From positions 1 through 64,000 of IMG/VR virus record IMGVR_UViG_3300023444_000001: a DNA stretch of 64,000 bases; one strand, written 5' to 3'. The notes below the pieces were generated by a model, which was not told the DNA's origin, did not search any database, and saw nothing but the letters and a program-made list of their open reading frames with translations. The stretch comes from a virus. Positions 4,315-55,437 of the stretch are shown piece by piece. Position 1 is the stretch's first letter. Each line of letters opens with the position of its first letter. The translations under genes and the position numbers were made by a program.

Positions 4315-4578
4315 TTACTTCAACTTTTTAGGAATTATACAAAAGAACTTAAAACCATCTTTTTTTGCCATATACTTATAATCCCCAGAAGGTCTCTTAT
4401 TTGGAGACTTATTAGCACAAAAATCCATTAAATTTGCCTGAAAAAACTCTGGAGAAACTTGAATTGCATATCCTTTATCCTCTACAATCCCTTCAGGTAA
4501 ATTAACTTTTGCTTCCTTCTTTTGAAGCAAAAATTTTTCAAAGTCTTTATTCACTTTACCCTCCTTTTCTAACCACAA
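4315..4578 (-). CDS. Hypothetical protein
   Basis: 87 aa ORF overlapping the upstream gene. Confidence 0.5.
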   Translation of the reverse strand: MWLEKEGKVNKDFEKFLLQKKEAKVNLPEGIVEDKGYAIQVSPEFFQANLMDFCANKSPNKRPSGDYKYMAKKDGFKFFCIIPKKLK

Positions 4579-6661
4579 AATTCAAAGTTCTCTTAACAAC
4601 ACGAAATAACAAATTTTCTTTCTCACTTACAAAATTCAAAATCCTTCTCTGAGAAGAAAAGAAATAAAGTATAACCTTTTCTATTCCCCTCAAACCCGCA
4701 GAAACAATATCCGAAATTCCGACTAAATCAACAATTTGTCGAAAAAATGTCCCTGTTTTAATCAAACTATCTTGAACATTTACCCCATCAAAAATCACTT
4801 GATGAATCATTCCTAATGAAGCATTAACCCAATCACTAATTCCAACTGTTTCAACCTCACTTCTTACAAAATTTACTCCCCTTGAAATTAAGTCACTCAC
4901 TCCAACAGAATCAATAATATTCCGAGAAAATGATTCTACTCTAACAAATATATCAGATATTCCAACTAAATCTACTAATTGCCTAAAAAAGGAGCCAACC
5001 TTATTTACAGAATCAGTAATATTCAAAGTATCAATAATACTTCGACTTAACATACCAATTTTAGAAACCATATCCGTAATTCCAACTACATCAAAAATAT
5101 TTCTTAAAAAAGCAACTTGTCTTGAAACTATATCTGATATAGAAACTGAATCCCCTAATTGCTTAAAGAATGTTCCAGTTCTTAAAACTATATCCGATAT
5201 TGAAACTGAATCTCCAATAAATCTAACAAATACCCCGAAAAAATTCAAATTATCGGAAATACTTTCTTGGTCATACAAATTTCTCAATTTATAAACCTGA
5301 TTGGAAACAGTATCTGTAATAGAAATAGAATCTATTTTACTTCTAAAAAAAATTCCTACTTTATAAACATTATCTGTAATTCCAACCGAATTTACAAGCG
5401 ACCTTATAAATGCTTCTACATTTGATACTATATCACTCACTCCAACAGAATCTATTAAGGTTCTAACTAATCCTCTACTTTGACTCATTAAATCAGTTAT
5501 ACCAATAGAATCAAAAATTTCTCGAACAAAAGAACTACTCTTTGAAACTACATCAGTTATTCCAACAGAATCAATAATATTCCGCAAAAAAGATTCTACC
5601 ACAAAAATAGAATCTGTAATATTTACACTTTCACTAAAATTCCGAAAAAATACTCCTATTTTAGAAACTACATCTGTAATACCTACATTATCTGCTAAAC
5701 TCCTTGCAAAGACACCTATATTTGTCATTATGTCCGATATAGATACTGTATCTGCTAAACTTACTGCTATGCCTTCTGATAAAGATACCATATCTGTAAC
5801 TCCAGCAGAATCAAAAATAGACTTAATAAAATTTCCTCCTTTACTCAATACATCACTTATTCCAAGTGAATCTACAGCAAGTTTCTTATATGTCGCCATT
5901 TTATTCATATTATCATTTATTCCAACAGATTCCGTAAGTAATTTACTATACGTTCCAATCCTATTCATACTATCAGATACTCCAACAGAATCACTTACTT
6001 TAGAAAAAGTTTTTCCACCAAACCAACTTGAATTTGATCCTTCAATAAGATCATAATTAAATCTTCCATACATAGTCGAAGTAAAACTTACAAACCCAAA
6101 TCCCATTTTACCAGCAGATACGCCATAAGTATTTTGTACAAAATTTGAAGCAATAACATTGCCATCTATTCTAAACTCTGCTCCTCCAGCAGAAGTATCA
6201 CCACCTTTATACCAACACTCCAATCTATACCAATGATCTGACTCTAAATCATAAGGATAAAAAGTATTGATAAATTGCGTTCCAAATCTATCCCAAGCCT
6301 GACATCTAACTCTATAACCTTGCCCTGAAACCCCAGTTCTTCCAAAACCTATAGTTGCAAAAACTACCGCTCCACTTGTCTCTATTTGTAACAAATTTCC
6401 AACATTTACTGCTGATTGCTGAAAGTATGTTGACGATGAATACTTAAAATAAAACCTATAATAAGAACTTACTTGACTTGCAAAACCAGCCCCTAAATAC
6501 CCAGAAACATTGTTCTCACTTCCTAATTTTTCTACTTGAAATCCATACGACCCATCTACAGCAATAGCAGGATATGTAAGCACTACTCCTGGATCATATA
6601 CTTCAGTACTAAAACTTCCTTTATTCTGACTTTCAAAACTTTCAGAGAAAAAAGTCGCCAT
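4556..6661 (-). CDS. Fiber-like protein: N-terminal lectin/jelly-roll domain plus ~22 tandem 20-aa repeats
   Basis: WYRLECW...EFRIDG domain followed by DSVGITD-type repeats every 20 aa. Confidence 0.75.
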   Translation of the reverse strand: MATFFSESFESQNKGSFSTEVYDPGVVLTYPAIAVDGSYGFQVEKLGSENNVSGYLGAGFASQVSSYYRFYFKYSSSTYFQQSAVNVGNLLQIETSGAVVFATIGFGRTGVSGQGYRVRCQAWDRFGTQFINTFYPYDLESDHWYRLECWYKGGDTSAGGAEFRIDGNVIASNFVQNTYGVSAGKMGFGFVSFTSTMYGRFNYDLIEGSNSSWFGGKTFSKVSDSVGVSDSMNRIGTYSKLLTESVGINDNMNKMATYKKLAVDSLGISDVLSKGGNFIKSIFDSAGVTDMVSLSEGIAVSLADTVSISDIMTNIGVFARSLADNVGITDVVSKIGVFFRNFSESVNITDSIFVVESFLRNIIDSVGITDVVSKSSSFVREIFDSIGITDLMSQSRGLVRTLIDSVGVSDIVSNVEAFIRSLVNSVGITDNVYKVGIFFRSKIDSISITDTVSNQVYKLRNLYDQESISDNLNFFGVFVRFIGDSVSISDIVLRTGTFFKQLGDSVSISDIVSRQVAFLRNIFDVVGITDMVSKIGMLSRSIIDTLNITDSVNKVGSFFRQLVDLVGISDIFVRVESFSRNIIDSVGVSDLISRGVNFVRSEVETVGISDWVNASLGMIHQVIFDGVNVQDSLIKTGTFFRQIVDLVGISDIVSAGLRGIEKVILYFFSSQRRILNFVSEKENLLFRVVKRTLNFVVRKGG
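4700..6000 (-). repeat. Degenerate coding tandem repeat, 60 nt period
   Basis: Motifs such as tccaacagaatc recur in register in the 60-nt lines; boundaries approximate. Confidence 0.8.
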
Positions 6662-27827: not shown

Positions 27828-28037
27828 TTAATGAAACACATAATATGCCCAAGCATATCCCAGCCCCACGCAGAGCATCCCCCACAATATCCACGGAGTA
27901 GCCCGGTCGATCATCTCGGTGATCTTGCCAGGCTGATATGGTGGCACATCCCGCCAATCGCCCTGGCGGACATGATCTCTAAGGTGCCAGAGTCTCAGTG
28001 CATCCCAATCTTGTCTACTACGCTCTTGTGGGTTCAT
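27828..28037 (-). CDS. Small membrane protein
   Basis: C-terminal TM segment; GC-richer island. Confidence 0.55.
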   Translation of the reverse strand: MNPQERSRQDWDALRLWHLRDHVRQGDWRDVPPYQPGKITEMIDRATPWILWGMLCVGLGYAWAYYVFH

Positions 28038-28396
28038 GGCTTTCCCTCCTCTATCACCCGGTTGACTGCTTCCAGGTCCGCAATCTTACGCTCCAATTCG
28101 CATCGCTGTTCGATGGCCTTCTTTAGTTCCGCCATTGCCCAATCGCGCTTGCGCTCTGTATTCTGCAGTTGTACTACAGCCTCGATATACGCCCGTCTGA
28201 GGTCCAGCACTTGTTGATCTTGGCGCAAGACCTCTACCACGACTATGGCACGGAAGAGGTACAATATGCCTATCAGGATTCCACTGAAGGCAACTGAGCC
28301 TATGACAATTTCGTACCAATGCACTTTTAGCCTCCTCTCTTTATATGGCCCCCGGTGGGGTGATCGACTGCTGGCCTGCAAGTCTCCACTCTGCAC
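28034..28396 (-). CDS. TM plus coiled-coil protein
   Basis: Hydrophobic helix then coiled coil; true start probably the internal GTG after AGGAGG. Confidence 0.55.
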   Translation of the reverse strand: MQSGDLQASSRSPHRGPYKERRLKVHWYEIVIGSVAFSGILIGILYLFRAIVVVEVLRQDQQVLDLRRAYIEAVVQLQNTERKRDWAMAELKKAIEQRCELERKIADLEAVNRVIEEGKP

Positions 28397-28554
28397 CCTC
28401 TATACCGGGGGCTCATGGTCATTTATCCTGTCCCGGAGGGCCTGTATCCTGCGCTCGATGTGTCCCTTGACACCCTCCAGTTCCTCAATGGTCTGCTGGT
28501 AGCAGATTATCGCGACTTTGTTCGTGTCCATGTTTCACCTCCATTTGGTTAACA

Positions 28555-28776
28555 TTATCGTTTCTGATAGTATTCAAAGACCATAACTATCATCTGCGTT
28601 AATGTCTCGTTGCCTTCTATTAACCCCTTTATTGTCCGTCCGTCTCTGCCGAAGTTTACAAGCATAGTGGCCCGTGCCTCCAGCAACTCTCGCTTCATCG
28701 GCAGAATATCATCCTCCTCAAGCGCTTTGACCAGTTCCCATATCTTACATCGGTTTAATCTCATTGCCCCCCCCAT
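28555..28776 (-). CDS. Small hypothetical protein
   Basis: ORF in the GC-richer island. Confidence 0.5.
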   Translation of the reverse strand: MGGAMRLNRCKIWELVKALEEDDILPMKRELLEARATMLVNFGRDGRTIKGLIEGNETLTQMIVMVFEYYQKR

Positions 28777-28778
28777 AT

Positions 28779-28985
28779 CTAATTAGATGTGCGTCTTAAT
28801 GCCTGATAGAAAACGTCATTCATCAGTAATTTTTTTCTGGTATCGCTGATAAACTCAGAGCCGCCCAGACAAAAATCAGGATGCCTTGAGTAGAACTCCT
28901 CAAATTGTCTAAGATACGCATCAGCGGCCTGCATCTGTTCTGCTGTCCCGTAAGGCATTGTTAATATTTTTTTCGCCCTTTTCAT
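28779..28985 (-). CDS. Small hypothetical protein
   Basis: AAGGAGG RBS. Confidence 0.55.
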   Translation of the reverse strand: MKRAKKILTMPYGTAEQMQAADAYLRQFEEFYSRHPDFCLGGSEFISDTRKKLLMNDVFYQALRRTSN

Positions 28986-29019
28986 CTTTCCCTCCTTTTC
29001 AGGTTGCGGCCAGTGGCCG

Positions 29020-29433
29020 TTAGTCCTTTATCAGGTTTATGACGTTGTCTTTCGTTATCTCTGCTATGACCGCTGGGGGCAAATTCCAAAAGTTTATTAC
29101 TATAGGCTTCCTGGTGTCTGTAATGATTGCCAGGTCCCCACCACGGCCGGGGCAGATAGTCACATGGTCATTGCGACGTTCTGCCTGCCGCGCCGCCTCT
29201 TCGAGTATGGCCTTTGCGTCGCCAGTGCGCATGATATTATCGCCTGCATCGCTTGCCAGGTGATACGCATGCCGGAACACCGGGCCGTGAAGGGTTAATT
29301 GTCTGGTTTCGGAAATTTCAATGTAAAGCATGTCACACCTCCTCAATCCTGCCAGCCCTCGAAGGGCCCGCATGTAATCTGCCTCTGTGCAGTCGTCACC
29401 ATAGCGCTGTTTGTATGCCTGCCAGACCACCAA
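29020..29433 (-). CDS. Hypothetical protein
   Basis: ORF; likely start at the internal MLYIEI after GAGGAGGTG. Confidence 0.5.
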   Translation of the reverse strand: MVVWQAYKQRYGDDCTEADYMRALRGLAGLRRCDMLYIEISETRQLTLHGPVFRHAYHLASDAGDNIMRTGDAKAILEEAARQAERRNDHVTICPGRGGDLAIITDTRKPIVINFWNLPPAVIAEITKDNVINLIKD

Positions 29434-29576
29434 TGTTCGTCTGGTTTTTCTCCATGTAATGACTTATTGGCGGGGCAAGGAATCTTTTCCAATTGTGCAC
29501 ATGAGGGAATATGTTTAATTTGTTCAGATTTTTTCATCTCATCCCTCCTCAATTAAATCAAAACCAAATTTTTTCT

Positions 29577-29831
29577 TTAATCCCATCCCCAACAACCACA
29601 ATAATATAAATCTGTCTCTTTATCCGGTCGATAAGAGAAAAATGGTAATCCAATCCTTGAATCTGTAACATTATCACATTGACAGCATTCAGCCTTTCTT
29701 CCTTCCAAAGAAGGCATTTCAGCAATTTCTATGGCTTCCGGAACTATACCAAAACAACTTGCACAAACCGGATTTCCTTTTTCATCAACAGCAGTTGCTG
29801 TATGTCCACATTTCATCATAACTATAGACAT
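29577..29831 (-). CDS. Small Cys-rich (zinc-finger-like) protein
   Basis: CGH, CxxC, CCQC, YYCGC; AAGGAGG RBS. Confidence 0.65.
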   Translation of the reverse strand: MSIVMMKCGHTATAVDEKGNPVCASCFGIVPEAIEIAEMPSLEGRKAECCQCDNVTDSRIGLPFFSYRPDKETDLYYCGCWGWD

Positions 29832-29883
29832 TTTTCCCTCCTTTAGTAAAAATAATACCTTTCCTCACAAAAATCAAATTTTC

Positions 29884-30399
29884 TTATTTCAGATATGAAT
29901 ATGAATACACATCCTTCAAAGTCCGAAATTTATCTCCTTTTCCCATTCCATATCCAACAAGAAAGCCATCCTCCTCTCTTACTTTGAATCCGACATATTT
30001 CACCCTATCTATGCCCTTATCCCTTTCAAACAAAACACATCCCTCAATAGACCTCGGATTTTCCTTCTCTAAAGACCTTTTTACTTCTTCAAAACTTTTT
30101 CCTGTGTCTAAAATATCATCTATAATCAAAACATTTCTATCTTTCACTTTCTTCAAATCAAACATGAAGTTTACTTTCAAATTTTCCGAAGGATTTAATT
30201 CTTCTCCATAAGAAAAAACTCCAGCAAATTGAATTTCCGGTGATAAACCAGAATATCGAATTAAATCCCATCCAAAAGGAAATCCTCCTTTCAATACAAT
30301 AAGAAAGAAAGGATTCTTTCCCCAATAATCAAAATTTATTCTCCGAGATATTTCATAAACCTTTCCTTTTATTTCCCTTTCCTTAAATATTTTCTTCAT
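29884..30399 (-). CDS. hpt: Hypoxanthine-guanine phosphoribosyltransferase
   Basis: VLKGG, PRPP-binding VLIIDDILDTG, FLVGYGM, FRTL. Confidence 0.88.
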   Translation of the reverse strand: MKKIFKEREIKGKVYEISRRINFDYWGKNPFFLIVLKGGFPFGWDLIRYSGLSPEIQFAGVFSYGEELNPSENLKVNFMFDLKKVKDRNVLIIDDILDTGKSFEEVKRSLEKENPRSIEGCVLFERDKGIDRVKYVGFKVREEDGFLVGYGMGKGDKFRTLKDVYSYSYLK

Positions 30400-30450
30400 T
30401 TTTTACCTCCTTTAGTAAACTGAACTTTTCTAATCTCATTCTTTTTTAAG

Positions 30451-30490
30451 AAAAAATTAGACCGGACTTTTCAAAATCCAGTCTTTTTTT
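30451..30490. terminator. Bidirectional terminator-like hairpin downstream of the CRISPR repeat
   Basis: AGACCGGACTTTT/AAAATCCAGTCT stem flanked by A-tract and T-tract. Confidence 0.6.
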
Positions 30491-30572
30491 AAGAAGAGTA
30501 TCCATGACCCTCTTTTGTCTATCCATTTAAGGGGGGGGGGTATTATCTTTCTTTCCTTTCCCTCTATAGGAT

Positions 30573-30604
30573 GTTTCAATCCACGCCCCCGCGCGGGGGG
30601 CGAC
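30573..30604 (-). CRISPR. Solitary type I-C CRISPR repeat (possible minimal array with a degenerate second repeat at ~30514-30540)
   Basis: Minus strand GTCGCCCCCCGCGCGGGGGCGTGGATTGAAAC: 32 nt, GC hairpin and ATTGAAAC end, intergenic in AT-rich DNA. Confidence 0.88.
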
Positions 30605-30637
30605 TGTATACACCTCAAGTGTTTTAACTCCTTTGAA

Positions 30638-30892
30638 TTACATCTTCATTTCCGACATCCTCCTTTCATATTCAGAATCAAAAAATTTCGTCTTATTTCC
30701 ACATTCAGAACAAATTCCTTCAAACTCTGTTTCCTCTTCATCTATTGTTCTCCAACATTTCATTTCATCAGACAATTTTACTGGAGGTTCTCCACAACAA
30801 ATAGACCTCCAATCTGGCTCAAACTCTTCTTCTCTTTCACAAAATTTCTCTGCTTTACAACGACAACAATTCATTGTACACATCTCATCCAT
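30638..30892 (-). CDS. Small acidic Cys-rich protein
   Basis: 84 aa with multiple Cys pairs; immediately upstream of the CRISPR repeat. Confidence 0.6.
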   Translation of the reverse strand: MDEMCTMNCCRCKAEKFCEREEEFEPDWRSICCGEPPVKLSDEMKCWRTIDEEETEFEGICSECGNKTKFFDSEYERRMSEMKM

Positions 30893-30898
30893 TTTTTC

Positions 30899-31069
30899 TC
30901 ACTTATCTTTCAAAAGTGTTACGTGAATAACCTCAACCCACTTTCTACACCTTGCACACTTTCCAAATACAAGATCAGTTGGATATTCGAGATCAGAGGT
31001 CAAAGTTCCATAAATTGGCCAATGACCACAAATAGTCTTCCAATCCTTATCAATTCTAATTCTTTTCAT
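30899..31069 (-). CDS. Small Cys-containing protein
   Basis: Start revised to MKRIRID after GGAGG; CGH...CARC. Confidence 0.55.
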   Translation of the reverse strand: MKRIRIDKDWKTICGHWPIYGTLTSDLEYPTDLVFGKCARCRKWVEVIHVTLLKDK

Positions 31070-31364
31070 TTTGTGCCTCCAATTTTCGATACCATTCTTC
31101 AGGATACCCAGGATACTCCATTCTACGAAGAGTGGAGCGAATCCCAAGGTCTTTAGCCAACTTATCACGAAGATCAAACCAAGGATTGTAATCCACATTA
31201 TCACCTTGTTCTTCACTCCAGCACTCTGGGAAAACCATCCCTGCTAAAGCGTGTGAATATCTCTCGTTCCTATCTAATCTTGATACTGCATCTGTTATAG
31301 CAACCAAGATTTCCTCACGACCATTGAGTTTTACAAGTGCTGATTTTATTGTCGATATACGCAT
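31056..31364 (-). CDS. Hypothetical protein, paralog A
   Basis: Start revised to MRISTIK (GGGAGGT RBS); highly similar to 32162..32461. Confidence 0.8.
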   Translation of the reverse strand: MRISTIKSALVKLNGREEILVAITDAVSRLDRNERYSHALAGMVFPECWSEEQGDNVDYNPWFDLRDKLAKDLGIRSTLRRMEYPGYPEEWYRKLEAQNEKN

Positions 31365-31527
31365 TACAAACCTCCCTTTCATTATACCAATCTTCTTCTC
31401 CATCATCCCACCGAATTTTTACTCTTCCTTTATGAGAATCCAAAGCAATTACTTCTGCATATCGTACTTTATCCCCTTCTGGAATTTCCAAATTCTGTTT
31501 GAGATAAAACATTGTTGATTGTCTCAT
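31315..31527 (-). CDS. Small hypothetical protein
   Basis: Start revised to MRQSTM, after the promoter and a GGGAGGT RBS. Confidence 0.6.
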   Translation of the reverse strand: MRQSTMFYLKQNLEIPEGDKVRYAEVIALDSHKGRVKIRWDDGEEDWYNEREVCNAYIDNKISTCKTQWS

Positions 31528-31547
31528 TGTAACCTCCCTTTGTTTGA

Positions 31548-31610
31548 AAGTTAAAGTTTGATTGTATAATATAATATAATATATCTCTTTGAAAAAGTCA
31601 AGGGTTTTGT
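31548..31610 (-). promoter_or_regulatory. Repeated early-type promoter, copy 1
   Basis: TTGACT-N17-TATATT with tandem ATATT; near-identical copies at ~33000 and ~49360. Confidence 0.82.
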
Positions 31611-31632
31611 TTGTCAAAAGATTCTTTCCTCC

Positions 31633-31821
31633 TTACTCAATCTCACAATATTCCTCAATTAGACTGATAACCTCAGAATATGACGAACTTTCAAAAGCAC
31701 GTTTAACAAACTCTTTTGCTCTCTCCTTCTCCCCAGCCTTTAGCAAAGCCTTCTTCGTAAGGCCAATCAAATTGAAAACATTCCCATTCTTTCCAACCAA
31801 TTTCACTACTGGCTTTTCCAT
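31633..31821 (-). CDS. Small conserved-looking phage protein
   Basis: LVGKNGNVFNLIG...ALLKAG...SSSYSEV pattern. Confidence 0.7.
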   Translation of the reverse strand: MEKPVVKLVGKNGNVFNLIGLTKKALLKAGEKERAKEFVKRAFESSSYSEVISLIEEYCEIE

Positions 31822-32030
31822 TTTATTCCTCCTTGTTTTGAACCTGGTTGAACCTGGATTTTACCATCCAAAGTCTTAGTCACCAAAGACAACTCTGAAT
31901 TTTCATCCATCCCAAAAACTACCAACAAATAAGCAACATTCCTTCCAATTTCATCACCACACCAATGGCACATAACCTTCCCATTCCCCAAAACAACTAT
32001 TCTCTCCATTACCATTGAAATGCAATCCAA
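31806..32030 (-). CDS. Small hypothetical protein
   Basis: CHWC motif. Confidence 0.45.
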   Translation of the reverse strand: MDCISMVMERIVVLGNGKVMCHWCGDEIGRNVAYLLVVFGMDENSELSLVTKTLDGKIQVQPGSKQGGIKWKSQ

Positions 32031-32161
32031 GCCAATTCATCATTTTCTCCTTATTTTTTTAGTCCTAAAATCAACTGTGCTGTGTTCAAAAAGAAGAGAG
32101 GAAGAAAAAAGAAGCCAAAATTTTCTCTTCCTCTCTTCTCAAATCAGAATCAATCCCAATC

Positions 32162-32461
32162 TCAATCGGTGGCATCCAACTTTTGGTACCATTCTTCAGG
32201 ATAACCCGGATATTCCATTCTGCGAAGAGTGGAACGAATCCCATATTCTTTTGCCAACTTATGCCGGAGATCAAACCAAGGAGTGTAGTCAACCCAATCT
32301 CCCTGTTCATCAGACCAACACTCCGGGAGAACCATCCCTGCCAAGGCATGAGAATATCTCTCACCTCGATTTAATTTTGTCAGAGCATCTGTTATCGCCG
32401 CAAGAATCTCCTCCCGACCACCCAATTCCGCCAACACACCTTTTATTGTCCTAACTCGCAT
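32162..32461 (-). CDS. Hypothetical protein, paralog B
   Basis: Shares ERYSHALAGMV-x-PECWS and GIRSTLRRMEYPGYPEEWY with paralog A; AAGGAGG RBS. Confidence 0.8.
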   Translation of the reverse strand: MRVRTIKGVLAELGGREEILAAITDALTKLNRGERYSHALAGMVLPECWSDEQGDWVDYTPWFDLRHKLAKEYGIRSTLRRMEYPGYPEEWYQKLDATD

Positions 32462-32541
32462 TGCAACCTCCTTCTTGTTTCCTTGTTTTGCACCAAATCA
32501 TTTTCACAGTTTCTTCATCTCATCCTTACTTTTGCCTTTGT

Positions 32542-32943
32542 TTAGGATTGAAGAAGTAACTCCTCCTTTTGTTCTTTTGTCATTTCCTTAAGTAAGAGAA
32601 TTTTTCCATTAAGGATTGCATATCTGTTGAGTTGACCATAGGTCATTAACATCTCTACATCCTCAACTCCTTGATCGAGAAGTTGTTGTAACTCTTCTCT
32701 TGAATAAAACCTGTTACGAGGTTTCACTTCAACCCCACCTTTGAAATATGCTCTATTTTCAACAAAGGTGGAAAATGGAGAAGGTTTCTCTATCTCTCCT
32801 TTTTGAATTGAAGTATAACAGTGAGTAGCACCCCACTGTTGCTTCTTTCTCCAAAATTCGTGTGTCTTGTTTCCGTATCTCATAGCCTTATTACTTCGGC
32901 TATTTACCCCAGACCGGATTTGAATTGTAGAGTGGGTAGTCAT
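32542..32943 (-). CDS. Hypothetical early protein
   Basis: First gene after promoter copy 2; AAGGAGG RBS. Confidence 0.7.
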   Translation of the reverse strand: MTTHSTIQIRSGVNSRSNKAMRYGNKTHEFWRKKQQWGATHCYTSIQKGEIEKPSPFSTFVENRAYFKGGVEVKPRNRFYSREELQQLLDQGVEDVEMLMTYGQLNRYAILNGKILLLKEMTKEQKEELLLQS

Positions 32944-32976
32944 TTTGTGCCTCCTTAAAGTTAAGGTTAAAAGTGA

Positions 32977-33032
32977 AGTTTAATTGTATAATATAATATA
33001 ATATATTTGCTTGAAAAAGTCAAGGGTTTTGT
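32977..33032 (-). promoter_or_regulatory. Repeated early-type promoter, copy 2
   Basis: TTGACT-N17-TATATT with the same flanks as copy 1. Confidence 0.82.
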
Positions 33033-33039
33033 TAAAAAA

Positions 33040-33970
33040 TTTTTACAGTCTAAAATAACAACTCCTTACTTTTCTTATTTCAAAAATCAAATTCACTATT
33101 ACTACTCTCTATAATGTCTACTTTTCTACATACACTCTCAATCATTGTCGCCTATATGAGGGTACCCGCATTAACTTGTTCTTATTTCTTAACTTACAAA
33201 AGTGGGAAATTTTTCACATACTGCTATTCTGTAACAATTCTTACATTAAATTCTTCTATAAACGACATCCTATTTACCTCAATAATCTTTCTAACCTACT
33301 GTCAATAAATAACTTACAATATAAAACCTCTCTTCTATTTCAAAAAGAGAAGTCTTTTTTCTTAATTCTAAATTTCAATTTTACTCTCTCTTCACAACTT
33401 CAAATTTCTTATTTTTATGTTCCATAATTTCAAATTAACTCAACTCATTTCTTTATACTGATCTATACTAAAATATCTATAAAATTCATTAACTCAACTG
33501 GTAGGCAAAAATTTCCTATCTCCATAAAATTCAATATACCTTCAAATGCTGTAACTTATTGCCTACCAACGAGTTCCATAAGCCTCCCACCTATTTGACA
33601 AAAACAAACTTGATTTCTATACAATAACACAACTCTATCCTAATTACTGGAATTGGACTTATCTTTATAACTTCTTGGTAGGAAACTACTTAACTCAACT
33701 GAAGGCTAAGAAGGTAAGAAATTTCTCTTCTGTTCTTTTTCTATACAAACAACCTAAAAGAACCACTTTTTCCCTTTTTTCTTTATTCCCGCAAAAATTT
33801 AATTCATTATACCTTATTCTATTATCCTTTGAAACCCTTCTTTTATATTTACCGCGAAATTTCAAGGAATACCAACCTTGGCGCAAAACCTTCCAAAATT
33901 TTTAAACTTTTAACAACCTTAATAAGAAAATCCTCTTACAACTATCAATCTTTTCCCCGCGAAAATTTCA
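33040..33970. other. Large AT-rich non-coding region with short direct and inverted repeats
   Basis: No convincing ORF. TTAACTCAACT at 33435, 33489 and 33690. TGGTAGGCAA/TTGCCTACCA inverted pair at 33499/33559. Confidence 0.55.
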
Positions 33971-34745: not shown

Positions 34746-36176
34746 TTATTTCCCAAAAATTTCCCGCAAAATTCCTTTTCCTTTGGCTCGTATAAAAACC
34801 TCATCCCTATTATCTCCCATATTCTTCAATGTCTGAGCCATATCCATCAACGTTCTTAATTGATCGGTAACATTTGGATCAAGAACTCCTCCATCAGATT
34901 TTTCTATGTGAACAGCATGAAAAGTTCTCTGAGCCTCTATCTCAATAACTGTCTTTACAAGATTTAACAAATCAGAAGAACCTTCTATTTTGAAAGTAAA
35001 ATCATATCCACAAAGACTTCCTTCTTTATATCGGGGACAATTTTCATCCAAATAACACGTATTACAGGAAATCTTTTCAACTATCCTTTCATCTAAAACA
35101 GGGACTTTTGGCTTTTTTTCAATAACTTCACTTTTTACTTCAACAATTTCATTGTCTCTTTTCATACTTGCTTTCACCCCCTTATTTCCTAACTTCTTGG
35201 CTTCTTTTATATCTTCCGGACTTAACCAATAAGCATTTTTACATTGATATTTATACCAATCAGTCCACTTTTTCCACATGAAAGCATTGATGATATTACA
35301 AGGTCTTGCCAATCCATTCTTAAATCCTTCCCAATCAAACTTGTCCCCAATAGTTTCTTCTATTTCTTCCTTATACTTTTTTTCTATTTTGCTTTTGAAT
35401 TTCTTTCTCAATATATCGGACTTTTTTCTCGTATCAGCAATTATCTCAAAATTTTCCATTCGTCCATGTGAAGAGAAAAATATTGCTCCAAATCTTCCAC
35501 CAGAAATCCAACTTGTAGAATCTACAGTAAAAAATGGTCTTCTTACTATATCTTTTTCACTACTTAAACCAAACCCATGAAGCAATATTTTCTTTTTTCT
35601 TGCAAATCTAAAATACCGATGTAAAGTCAAATCACTCCGTACCCAACCTGACCCTGTTCCAATGTAATCATAGGCATCAAACCATCCTAAATCTTCTATT
35701 TCTTTATTTGACTCACCTTGCAAAACAGGTATCAGATGTATTCCCATGTCTTTCGCCTTATTTAACCACTTTACTCTCTCTGCTTTTCCAAAATCCTCAG
35801 AAGTAAAATCTAATTCAGCGAACGCTTGAACAGATTCTCTCATCTTAAAGGCAAAATCTAAATATTCATTATAATACTGCTCTATATCAAGACTTTTCCC
35901 TTTTGCCCCTCCAGATTTTTCTAAATCTATATTCAACGTATATCCACCTGAATCAATAAATACAAAATCAAAGTCTCTCAAAAATTCTTCTTTTAACTGT
36001 TCTATAGACTTTTTCCTTATCAACTTTCTTAAATAGTAAAAAGACAATAATACATTTCTAATTCCTATCATTCTCAATATACTTCTAAACTCGTTTGTCT
36101 CCGCACCAGCAAAAAGCAAACAAGTATTGTATATCTTTGGATAACATCGAAATTCCATGCCATTAAATTCTTGCAT
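34746..36176 (-). CDS. dpdA: DpdA-like (TGT-fold) deazaguanine DNA transglycosylase with a C-terminal Cys4/helical extension
   Basis: FIDSGGYT, ELD, IPVLQ, HGFG, VDSTSW; clustered with folE/queD/queE/queC; C-terminal CNTC-x5-C-x8-C. Confidence 0.78.
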   Translation of the reverse strand: MQEFNGMEFRCYPKIYNTCLLFAGAETNEFRSILRMIGIRNVLLSFYYLRKLIRKKSIEQLKEEFLRDFDFVFIDSGGYTLNIDLEKSGGAKGKSLDIEQYYNEYLDFAFKMRESVQAFAELDFTSEDFGKAERVKWLNKAKDMGIHLIPVLQGESNKEIEDLGWFDAYDYIGTGSGWVRSDLTLHRYFRFARKKKILLHGFGLSSEKDIVRRPFFTVDSTSWISGGRFGAIFFSSHGRMENFEIIADTRKKSDILRKKFKSKIEKKYKEEIEETIGDKFDWEGFKNGLARPCNIINAFMWKKWTDWYKYQCKNAYWLSPEDIKEAKKLGNKGVKASMKRDNEIVEVKSEVIEKKPKVPVLDERIVEKISCNTCYLDENCPRYKEGSLCGYDFTFKIEGSSDLLNLVKTVIEIEAQRTFHAVHIEKSDGGVLDPNVTDQLRTLMDMAQTLKNMGDNRDEVFIRAKGKGILREIFGK

Positions 36177-49333: not shown

Positions 49334-49388
49334 AAGTTAAAGTTTGATTGTATAATATAATATAATATATCTCTTTGAAAAAGTCAAG
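49334..49388 (-). promoter_or_regulatory. Repeated early-type promoter, copy 3
   Basis: About 55 nt identical to copy 1; TTGACT-N17-TATATT. Confidence 0.82.
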
Positions 49389-49399
49389 AGAATTGTTAT

Positions 49400-54477: not shown

Positions 54478-54510
54478 TGAAGATAATATATTCTCCCGTA
54501 AAAGTCAAGA
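54478..54510 (-). promoter_or_regulatory. Related sigma70-like promoter upstream of polA
   Basis: TTGACT-N17-TATCTT, resembling the repeated promoter. Confidence 0.6.
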
Positions 54511-55437
54511 GTTTAATTTCTCAGATATAATTCTTGATATTACATCCTCCTTCTTCAGATATACTTGTTTCCATTCCTCAACGGTATGTTGTGCTGGGTC
54601 TTTATATATTAGCCTAACCAAGTATAAATTCATCATAACTTCCTTCAACTTAGAAACCAACCGATTCCGTCCCTTAAATCCCGAAAAATCATTATCCAAA
54701 GCCAAAACTAACCTTGAAAAATTCAAAAGATTTTGAATTTGTCTATCAGTAACTCTCCATCCAAGTAGGGCTATAGAAGAATTTCCAGCCCTCCAAACAT
54801 TCTCACAATCGAGTTCACCCTCTACAATAACAGGAATTTTTGAATCCTTAACCAAAAGCGCCCTATAAAGTCCATATAACCCTCCCAACTCTGATTTTAA
54901 CCCGCTTGGATAAACATATCTTCGATCTGAATAAACACCTCTATAAGTTACTCCTATTATTTCTCCTTTTAGATTTCTTATGGCAAAAACAAGACAATTA
55001 CTCAACTTATCATACCTTACATCATTAAGATTTATTCCTCCTAATTTTCTTCTCTCCAAATACTTTACTGCAACAGAATCTTTATCTTCTCCTTTTAATT
55101 CTGGAAGAGCAAAAAATCTAACTTTTGGAGACTTAACATCTTCACATTCTCTCTTCCTGTATAAATCTTCCAACAATTTGTCTCTTTTTGCAATTTCTTT
55201 CATATCAAAAAAACCAGATATTTTATCTTCTTTCAATCCTTTTTCTCTAAGAAGCCTTAAAACAGAACCTCCTTTTCCACATCCAAAACAAAACCAAACC
55301 CCTTTATCCAAATTCAAAAAGAAACTTCCCTTTGTTTCTCTATGAAAAGGGCACAACGAACGCAATTCATTCCCAACTATTCTTGGATTTTTAAGCCCAA
55401 AAACTTCAATAATCTTCTCATAAGATTTTATCTTCAA
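54505..55437 (-). CDS. dnaG: DNA primase (CHC2 zinc finger plus TOPRIM)
   Basis: CPFH...CFGC, VEGELD, LDND; TTG start with AGGAGG RBS. Confidence 0.9.
   Translation of the reverse strand: MKIKSYEKIIEVFGLKNPRIVGNELRSLCPFHRETKGSFFLNLDKGVWFCFGCGKGGSVLRLLREKGLKEDKISGFFDMKEIAKRDKLLEDLYRKRECEDVKSPKVRFFALPELKGEDKDSVAVKYLERRKLGGINLNDVRYDKLSNCLVFAIRNLKGEIIGVTYRGVYSDRRYVYPSGLKSELGGLYGLYRALLVKDSKIPVIVEGELDCENVWRAGNSSIALLGWRVTDRQIQNLLNFSRLVLALDNDFSGFKGRNRLVSKLKEVMMNLYLVRLIYKDPAQHTVEEWKQVYLKKEDVISRIISEKLNS

Follow-up and report, generated by a model that had tools for sequence, protein, structure and literature searches.

The DNA analysed here, called the window, covers positions 1 to 64,000 of a virus record 81,937 bp in length (IMG/VR IMGVR_UViG_3300023444_000001), and it carries on its minus strand a 32-nt repeat, GTCGCCCCCCGCGCGGGGGCGTGGATTGAAAC, at 30573-30604, of the kind found in CRISPR arrays. 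The repeat lies 33 nt behind the stop codon of a small gene, gpD, and ~90 nt separate its end from a terminator; since all long genes of the phage are on the minus strand, it is in sense with phage transcription. We consider this solitary unit, which mimics a type I-C repeat, a candidate RNA anti-CRISPR (Racr), that is, a decoy for host Cas proteins, and give this reading a probability of about 0.5. The unit is composed as follows.

30573-30604, minus strand: solitary type I-C CRISPR repeat, with its stem-loop at 30602-30584
30583-30573, minus strand: 11-nt future 5' handle, UGGAUUGAAAC
30541-30572, minus strand: purine-rich, spacer-like 32-nt segment (psiS), which would come after the handle upon Cas5c cleavage
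30531-30540, minus strand: run of ten C (C10; G10 on the plus strand), the sole G or C homopolymer of at least 9 nt in the genome
30485-30530, minus strand: remaining tail, with TGGAT at 30525 and 30504
30449-30484, minus strand: intrinsic-terminator-like hairpin and T-run (hairpin at 30484-30459, 11 pairs, AATTTTTT tail)

An identical 32-mer forms arrays in at least 120 genome stretches. In one of these, a Syntrophus metagenome-assembled genome (MAG; L091), the genes Cas5d-Csd1-Cas7-Cas4-Cas1-Cas2 are followed on the same strand by 12 exact repeats, and because this array follows I-C cas genes in that orientation, both the subtype and the sense strand of the phage repeat are fixed. Read as RNA, the repeat is GU / CGCCCCC / CGCGC / GGGGGCG / UGGAUUGAAAC, with overhangs of 2 nt at the 5' side and 11 nt at the 3' side, the latter ending in ATTGAAAC, around a stem of 7 bp and a loop of 5 nt; the same layout of overhangs, stem and loop has been described for type I-C repeats (PMC8524198). 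As it matches the repeat of arrays beside I-C cas genes at 32 of 32 positions, the phage copy can be taken as a substrate-grade mimic. It has 75% GC inside a 33% GC genome, and no second copy was found in the 81,937 bp, even allowing up to 11 mismatches. At gathering thresholds Rfam, which covers only some repeat families, gave no match for the repeat; its CRISPR-DR9 model scored 23.4 bits on the minus strand against a gathering score of 45. The 3 nt preceding the repeat are ACA and not TTC, the type I-C protospacer-adjacent motif (PAM). Searches of the whole phage found no Cas5d, Cas1 or Cas7, and that for Csd1 was non-informative, its control having stayed silent. The initial annotation had described a 32-nt type I-C repeat in sense with phage transcription and no cas operon in the window, and both statements hold.

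For RNA anti-CRISPRs we draw on Camara-Wilpert et al. 2023 (PMC10651486), who name as marks of a candidate a full-length repeat of high identity, no second repeat within ~100 bp and a position not beside cas genes. The phage repeat is complete and identical (32/32), it is solitary, and it lies on a phage, away from cas. Its context is supportive as well: it is in sense, at the 3' end of an operon under a promoter element that occurs three times in the phage, and a terminator comes after it. The closest known counterpart is RacrIC1, which a Bifidobacterium pseudocatenulatum prophage carries as a type I-C RNA anti-CRISPR; it occupies the 3' end of an operon, is co-transcribed with an acrIC5 homologue that lies 11 nt upstream, and alone rescues a targeted phage in an I-C strain (PMC10651486). 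The two are alike in being solitary I-C repeats on a phage, directly after a small protein gene, with co-transcription expected here. They differ in that the upstream gene here is the orphan gpD, for which no similarity to AcrIC5 has been shown, in that the gap is 33 nt instead of 11, in that our phage looks virulent, and in the 118-nt tail with its C10 run and terminator; moreover, the present unit is known from sequence. The initial annotation had proposed either an RNA anti-CRISPR or a hijacking mini-array with a target; the solitary sense repeat within a transcription unit of a cas-less phage upholds the former, and the mini-array and the target found no support, as described below.

The operon that would produce the unit, and the gene that marks its boundary, are the following.

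31548-31611, minus strand: 64-nt promoter element with TTGACT-17-TATATT at 31601-31573, the predicted operon start
31315-31527, minus strand: gpA, 70 amino acids (aa), first gene of the operon, called from its open reading frame (ORF) and ATG
31056-31364, minus strand: gpB, 102 aa, an orphan with one paralogue in the phage (32162-32461)
30899-31069, minus strand: gpC, 56 aa, basic, isoelectric point (pI) 9.2
30638-30892, minus strand: gpD, 84 aa, acidic (pI 4.5), nine Cys, an orphan
29884-30399, minus strand: phosphoribosyltransferase (PF00156, E 1.7e-20), beyond the terminator and outside the unit

The promoter hexamers agree with the consensus at 10 of 12 positions, a consensus match by which the start site is predicted. 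The 64-nt element is present in three copies of 89-100% identity (31548-31611, 32970-33033 and 49334-49397), with a weaker partial fourth copy at 54480-54511, and such a repeated, near-consensus sigma-70-type element probably marks co-regulated early promoters. Upstream of the repeat, the best promoter-like site is this one, at ~970 nt (10/12), and there is a weak one at ~270 nt (9/12). Judging from the gene order, the repeat unit looks like the 3' end of an early operon in an accessory region that separates the packaging module from the replication module, and the layout suggests, by analogy with RacrIC1, that the repeat is co-transcribed with the genes upstream.

The operon genes themselves have few relatives. 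In a search of 5.8 billion proteins gpB found only itself and its paralogue, at 76% identity, which sits in the neighbouring promoter-led operon; the pair is also visible as a DNA repeat (D1) of 249 nt and 79% identity (31075-31323 versus 32172-32420). The same search with gpD returned gpD itself only, and its look-alikes in Atlas, with scores below 0.9, are leads only. Pfam and PHROG gave no match for gpD, nor for the longer forms of gpA (TTG start, 31315-31617), gpB (ATG start, 31056-31406) and gpC (GTG start). By its position alone, gpD is a candidate anti-CRISPR protein.

We propose the following course of events. Host RNA polymerase would start at the strong, repeated 31601-31573 promoter and make an RNA of ~1.1 kb, which would cover the four small orphan genes, the repeat and the 118-nt tail and end at the 30484-30459 terminator. 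In a type I-C host, Cas5c would cut this RNA after 30584, where the repeat stem ends on its 3' side. Cas5c is known to recognise both the cut site and the handle, and together with Cas7.7 it clamps the handle and nucleates assembly (PMC8524198); the head of the I-C Cascade is Cas7, and not a Cas6 held on the hairpin (PMC8524198; PMC7684278). On the phage RNA, Cas5c would likewise stay on the 11-nt 5' handle and with Cas7 nucleate a Cascade for which Cas6 and a 3' hairpin are unneeded. Because Cas5c stays at the 5' handle, the protein-bound product of an I-C solitary repeat would be the downstream fragment, here consisting of the handle, the 32-nt segment, the C10 run and the rest of the tail. 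This fragment would recruit a filament of Cas5c and Cas7 and seed Cascade-like complexes on an RNA with no target, so that host Cas proteins would be tied up. Competition for Cas proteins is enough, since a non-targeting CRISPR RNA (crRNA) weakens interference in the I-F model (PMC10651486). The acidic, Cys-rich gpD might be a protein partner of the RNA, as AcrIC5 is for RacrIC1. Every step, from expression through cleavage and assembly to inhibition, is something we infer.

The segment behind the repeat bears on whether the unit is more than one repeat. In the initial annotation, the 32 nt downstream, the C run and TTAAATGGATAGACA were quoted as parts of a mini-array in which TTAAATGGATAGACA echoes the repeat, and a terminator was placed after them. 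The letters are as claimed, a terminator-like hairpin is present, and the 8/10 letter match behind the echo is real; however, the match does not exceed chance level. When the repeat is aligned locally with the 118 nt downstream, the best score is 7; of 2000 shuffles, 373 do as well, and so do 32% of 1385 windows taken from the coding strand of the phage itself. On these two comparisons a degenerate second repeat in the tail was rejected, and with no recognisable second repeat the mini-array reading fails: virus-borne mini-CRISPR arrays are defined by at least two repeats flanking a spacer, and the phage has one repeat here.

The purine-rich make-up of the 32-nt segment is that of the phage's own coding strand, and its length is rare among spacers next to this repeat (25 of the 1153 taken from arrays). 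The C10 run stands in a coding strand of which C makes up only 10.6%. The type I-C handle begins with TGGAT, and a 50-nt stretch of the tail has this motif three times, the third time at 30480 in the terminator stem, as TGGATTTTGAAAAG; this triple cluster, a post-hoc observation, is one of 8 such in 82 kb. Both the C10 run and the TGGAT cluster are unusual and are left without explanation.

A role for the segment as a guide, directed at a host gene or a competing element, had also been suggested, together with a search for a match flanked by a 5'-TTC PAM, and no convincing target was found in the phage, IMG/VR, the JGI metagenomes or the fetched cas loci. The scans of the two large collections were exact-match, so targets mismatched in the first 20 nt are undetectable by them. 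Within the window, no second copy of the segment exists at up to 3 mismatches, and self-targeting was discarded, as the best match elsewhere in the whole phage is 22/32. IMG/VR returned 0 matches for the whole segment and 0 for its first 20 nt. These 20 nt are found in the JGI metagenomes in one sequence, on two contigs, with TTG as PAM and a match that stops at nt 20, inside the coding region of a ResB/Ccs-like cytochrome c biogenesis gene (read by eye, with no family search). This match was not retained as a target, being about what chance would give by a rough estimate of the collection's size, and it is no viral match.

When 128 fetched loci were scanned, the Syntrophus MAG L091 gave TTC followed by a 10-nt PAM-proximal match ~110 nt before cas5d, on the antisense strand of the ORF directly upstream of that gene. 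It is the only TTC-flanked match of this kind, and 2.3% of all phage 10-mers do as well by chance (120 of these loci). A Syntrophaceae MAG has CTG and an 11-nt match, in mid-gene and on the sense strand, at a position non-homologous to that in L091. A CreR-like combination of handle and segment was looked for in the two Syntrophaceae MAGs and was not found (4 versus 6 and 4 versus 3 control matches). The fetched blocks are 8 kb long, and most of them, as estimated from operon length, probably end short of the cas3 promoter.

Comparisons with other units of this repeat family gave nothing further. A likeness between the segment and the sequence after other solitary repeats was tried and set aside, as the copy in L106 ties with an ordinary spacer at the top of 1310 segments. 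No match to the phage was found among the 1153 spacers of fetched arrays with this repeat (best 21/24), nor to the window for one low-GC spacer from the sample contigs. The phage flanks, compared with 63 leaders and 62 trailers of such arrays, showed nothing beyond shuffles, and since they resemble neither, the repeat appears to be a precise unit rather than a piece of array dragged in. The exact-match scans of IMG/VR and the JGI metagenomes contained no uninterrupted site, that is, the site with the repeat absent. With no target in sight, a decoy is the simplest outcome for the RNA.

It had been expected that the repeat would help to identify the host, but it is too widespread. Among the listed carriers of the exact repeat are Desulfobacterota / Thermodesulfobacteriota, Acidobacteriota, Dehalococcoidia and other Chloroflexota, Verrucomicrobiota, Planctomycetota, Bacillota, Bacteroidia, Alpha- and Betaproteobacteria, Gemmatimonadota, Armatimonadota, Spirochaetaceae, Latescibacterota, Methylomirabilis and one contig labelled Patescibacteria. 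The GC content of these listed carriers is 0.44-0.70, compared with 0.33 for the phage, and because the repeat is spread over many phyla, all with a GC far above that of the phage, it cannot name the host.

The exact repeat also occurs in eight IMG/VR contigs, some of which are plain arrays at contig ends. One contig (L004) has a solitary copy. Two phage contigs of higher GC carry two-repeat, one-spacer arrays beside small genes (L006, 3608-3704; L009, 4333-4432), and several kb away each has a separate near-perfect solitary copy (L006 at 10912; L009 at 1071, reverse strand). Solitary copies and one-spacer arrays on other phage contigs indicate that phages use this repeat family repeatedly.

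Two further occurrences of the repeat are recorded here as observations. In L002, another IMG/VR contig, a solitary exact repeat (reverse strand, 115-146) is followed 23 nt on by a degenerate-looking repeat (GTCGCC...GGATTGATAC), and this could be a short-spacer CreA/Cracr-like unit. DATMXF010000040.1, labelled Patescibacteria group (L030 and L059), has six dispersed solitary copies, either exact or altered at a few 5'-end positions, ~0.8-1.5 kb apart over ~12 kb and forming no array; a similar 'ggaaaccttaaggt.aggaagcga' stretch comes before two of them.

The continuity of the locus was examined in the source sample, a microbial mat, by comparing the region with contigs (Logan, DNA run X1) rather than raw reads. 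In X1, 94% of the sampled words of 29800-31300 are present, and the contigs flanking the repeat have similar depths, 35 and 46. An 85-nt contig of depth 47.5 joins 26 nt of the repeat to 59 nt of upstream phage sequence with no differences. On the low-coordinate side, the Logan contig ends exactly at the C10/G10 run (30540), and as no listed contig piece spans 30541-30578, contiguity there depends on the original assembly. At least 14 contig pieces of X1 have the order repeat-spacer-repeat with this repeat. The RNA run of the same sample (X2, 14.8 million letters) contains a contig of 56 nt in which 24 foreign nt precede the repeat with 2 differences, at a depth of ~11,800. Taken together, the X1 array pieces and the X2 contig show that I-C systems with this or a near-identical repeat are present in the mat and in its RNA library. 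The 56-nt contig could stem from a very active pre-crRNA, as its 5' end, or represent a further solitary repeat RNA of the mat. Contigs of the RNA library that match the phage lie only at 29830-30032 and 33097-33269; they are uninformative on the unit, and the library can contain DNA.

Several observations weigh against a decoy: (i) transcription and cutting of the phage unit rest on inference; (ii) the RNA-library contigs over the repeat have 2-3 other letters and foreign flanks and thus come from other loci; (iii) the GC content of the listed exact-repeat carriers (0.44-0.70) is far from that of the phage (0.33); (iv) the best promoter, ~970 nt upstream, is outside the 250-bp limit by which the Racr authors chose candidates (PMC10651486); (v) a pure decoy leaves the 118-nt tail with its unique C10 run unexplained; (vi) the active product of RacrIF1 is the upstream fragment, so that the mechanism laid out above for I-C is an extrapolation; and (vii) relatives of the phage and of the operon genes are absent from the collections searched.

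Other explanations have to be considered beside the decoy. The one we would take most seriously, though we think it doubtful, is a one-repeat guide RNA, similar to a Cracr or serving as an inter-phage weapon, in which the handle and 32-35 nt form a complete I-C guide and send Cascade either to a cas or toxin promoter, where partial pairing would silence immunity, or to a competing phage by full pairing. One repeat could suffice in I-C, because Cascade nucleates on the 5' handle with no Cas6 at a 3' hairpin (PMC7684278), and the 32-nt segment is within the spacer range for this repeat. Liu et al. describe Cracrs with at least 9 PAM-proximal matches, shared with the spacer portion of host CreA/CreR, that lead to a cas or toxin promoter (10.1101/2024.10.29.618823); they also report I-C Cracrs, and in their single-repeat V-A example a lone repeat-like sequence is followed by a spacer-like one and then by a rho-independent terminator. 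The phage unit has this form, and it has the TTC-flanked 10-nt match before cas5d in L091. However, that match is weak, with a chance rate of 0.023, the match in the other Syntrophaceae MAG has the wrong PAM and lies elsewhere, neither MAG has the CreR-like counterpart, and no full or 20-nt protospacer is found in IMG/VR, while the sole metagenome match is at about chance level with a TTG PAM. Cracr repeats are degenerate whereas the phage repeat is perfect, and the reported I-C cases include two-spacer arrays. With its coding-strand make-up, the segment may be plain phage spacer DNA. That the single repeat and the terminator would yield a complete one-repeat type I crRNA, with a guide of 32-35 nt possibly bounded by C10, which reprograms host Cascade, is rather unlikely in our estimation; if true, such a crRNA would, for instance, silence a host defence promoter or attack a rival phage, which goes beyond soaking up Cas proteins.

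Less probable still is a neutral relic, a repeat that entered the phage a single time, perhaps through recombination with a mobile element or an array of the host, and persists with no function. The phage is a singleton with no evidence of conservation, neither target nor expression evidence was found, and a 1.7-kb GC-rich foreign island ~1.1 kb downstream points to recent uptake of foreign DNA in the region; yet all 32 positions are intact in a unit of 75% GC, the capture comprised exactly one repeat and neither leader, trailer nor spacer, the unit has sense orientation and is placed after a stop codon and before a terminator, where expression is expected, and other phage contigs hold the same repeat as solitary units and one-spacer arrays. 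We find it hard to favour some other RNA or coding role. Cleavage by Cas5c would leave the repeat hairpin as a structured 3' end on the upstream mRNA, which would suit a site for processing or stability, and small ORFs run through the repeat (53 aa from a TTG at 30618, preceded at 9 nt by AAGGAG, and 28 aa from a GTG at 30613). AAGGAG is common on this strand, though, and only 31 of its 102 copies precede an ORF of at least 40 aa; the GC-rich codons are foreign to the phage, and the small ORFs were judged unlikely. A coding role would also leave the 32/32 identity to a CRISPR repeat unexplained. An assembly artefact, with the repeat threaded into the contig from the deep arrays of the sample that share the 32-mer, is barely credible. 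Many array contigs do have this repeat and nothing listed bridges 30541-30578, but the break at 30540 coincides with the G10 run, a common cause of contig breaks, the upstream junction is bridged by the 85-nt contig, flanking depths and word content in X1 agree with a continuous sequence, the two sides do not differ in composition or strand bias, and terminal repeats close the record.

The genome in which the unit lies is that of a tailed phage. The record has direct terminal repeats of 127 bp and is rated 100% complete by IMG/VR; its GC content is ~0.33, with a strong strand bias, and 91 of 110 ORFs in a simple non-overlapping selection are on the minus strand. It encodes a large terminase (TerL), a portal and a head-morphogenesis domain fused to a helicase, together with a family A DNA polymerase, a DnaB-like helicase and a UvsX-like recombinase; no tRNA genes were found. 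A search for a tyrosine integrase found none in the phage, which therefore looks virulent. At 34746-36176 there is a gene resembling queuine tRNA-ribosyltransferase (phrog_887, E 1e-41), and the phage may combine DNA modification with a CRISPR-directed RNA. Relatives are distant: those of TerL reach at most 36% identity in INPHARED, where their hosts are diverse (Streptomyces, Bacillus, Bacteroides), and at most 40% among IMG/VR contigs; blastn of 28000-33000 against phages gave no match, protein searches of IMG/VR with the phosphoribosyltransferase and gpD found no relatives, and the DNA polymerase was no guide to host or relatives.

Two other regions of the window stand out. The island at 27830-29500, ~1.1 kb downstream of the repeat, has a GC content of 0.42-0.585 against ~0.33 and a weaker strand skew, and contains six or seven small ORFs with no Pfam or PHROG match; it has the look of a recent insert, derived from a phage or host of higher GC. 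At 4556-6661, in the structural region, a 701-aa gene consists of many 60-nt-periodic repeats (a 26-nt core is present 11 times at spacings that are multiples of 60) and encodes a repeat protein.

Virus-borne mini-CRISPR arrays are said, in work attributed to Medvedeva and to Faure in 2019, to take part in inter-viral conflict. The unit described here resembles them as a CRISPR repeat on a cas-less virus, and L006 and L009 carry the same repeat as such arrays; it differs in having one repeat and a segment with no viral match in exact scans of IMG/VR and metagenome contigs. With RacrIF1 (PMC10651486) it shares repeat mimicry and the proposed competition with host crRNAs for Cas proteins. In RacrIF1, however, the active RNA lies upstream of the cut, is held by Cas6f and a long Cas7f filament, and has no 5' handle, whereas in I-C Cas5c would keep the downstream fragment and the phage-encoded tail would be the scaffold.

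A solitary-repeat RNA anti-CRISPR on a phage is a known kind of trick and not a new one. What is particular here is the perfect identity to a repeat shared across phyla, the gap in GC content between the phage and the carriers of that repeat, and the length of the tail, which includes the unique C10 run. If active, the unit would be the second natural type I-C RNA anti-CRISPR, and its source would be a phage of low GC, virulent and DNA-modifying, for which the searched collections contain no relatives. As its repeat is common, letter for letter, to I-C systems of many phyla, it could in principle have a very wide host range, and an active unit would be a useful genetic off-switch for I-C tools. 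It would also mean that in type I-C, where the nuclease stays with the downstream fragment, the sequence behind a lone repeat is of consequence, in contrast to the I-F model.

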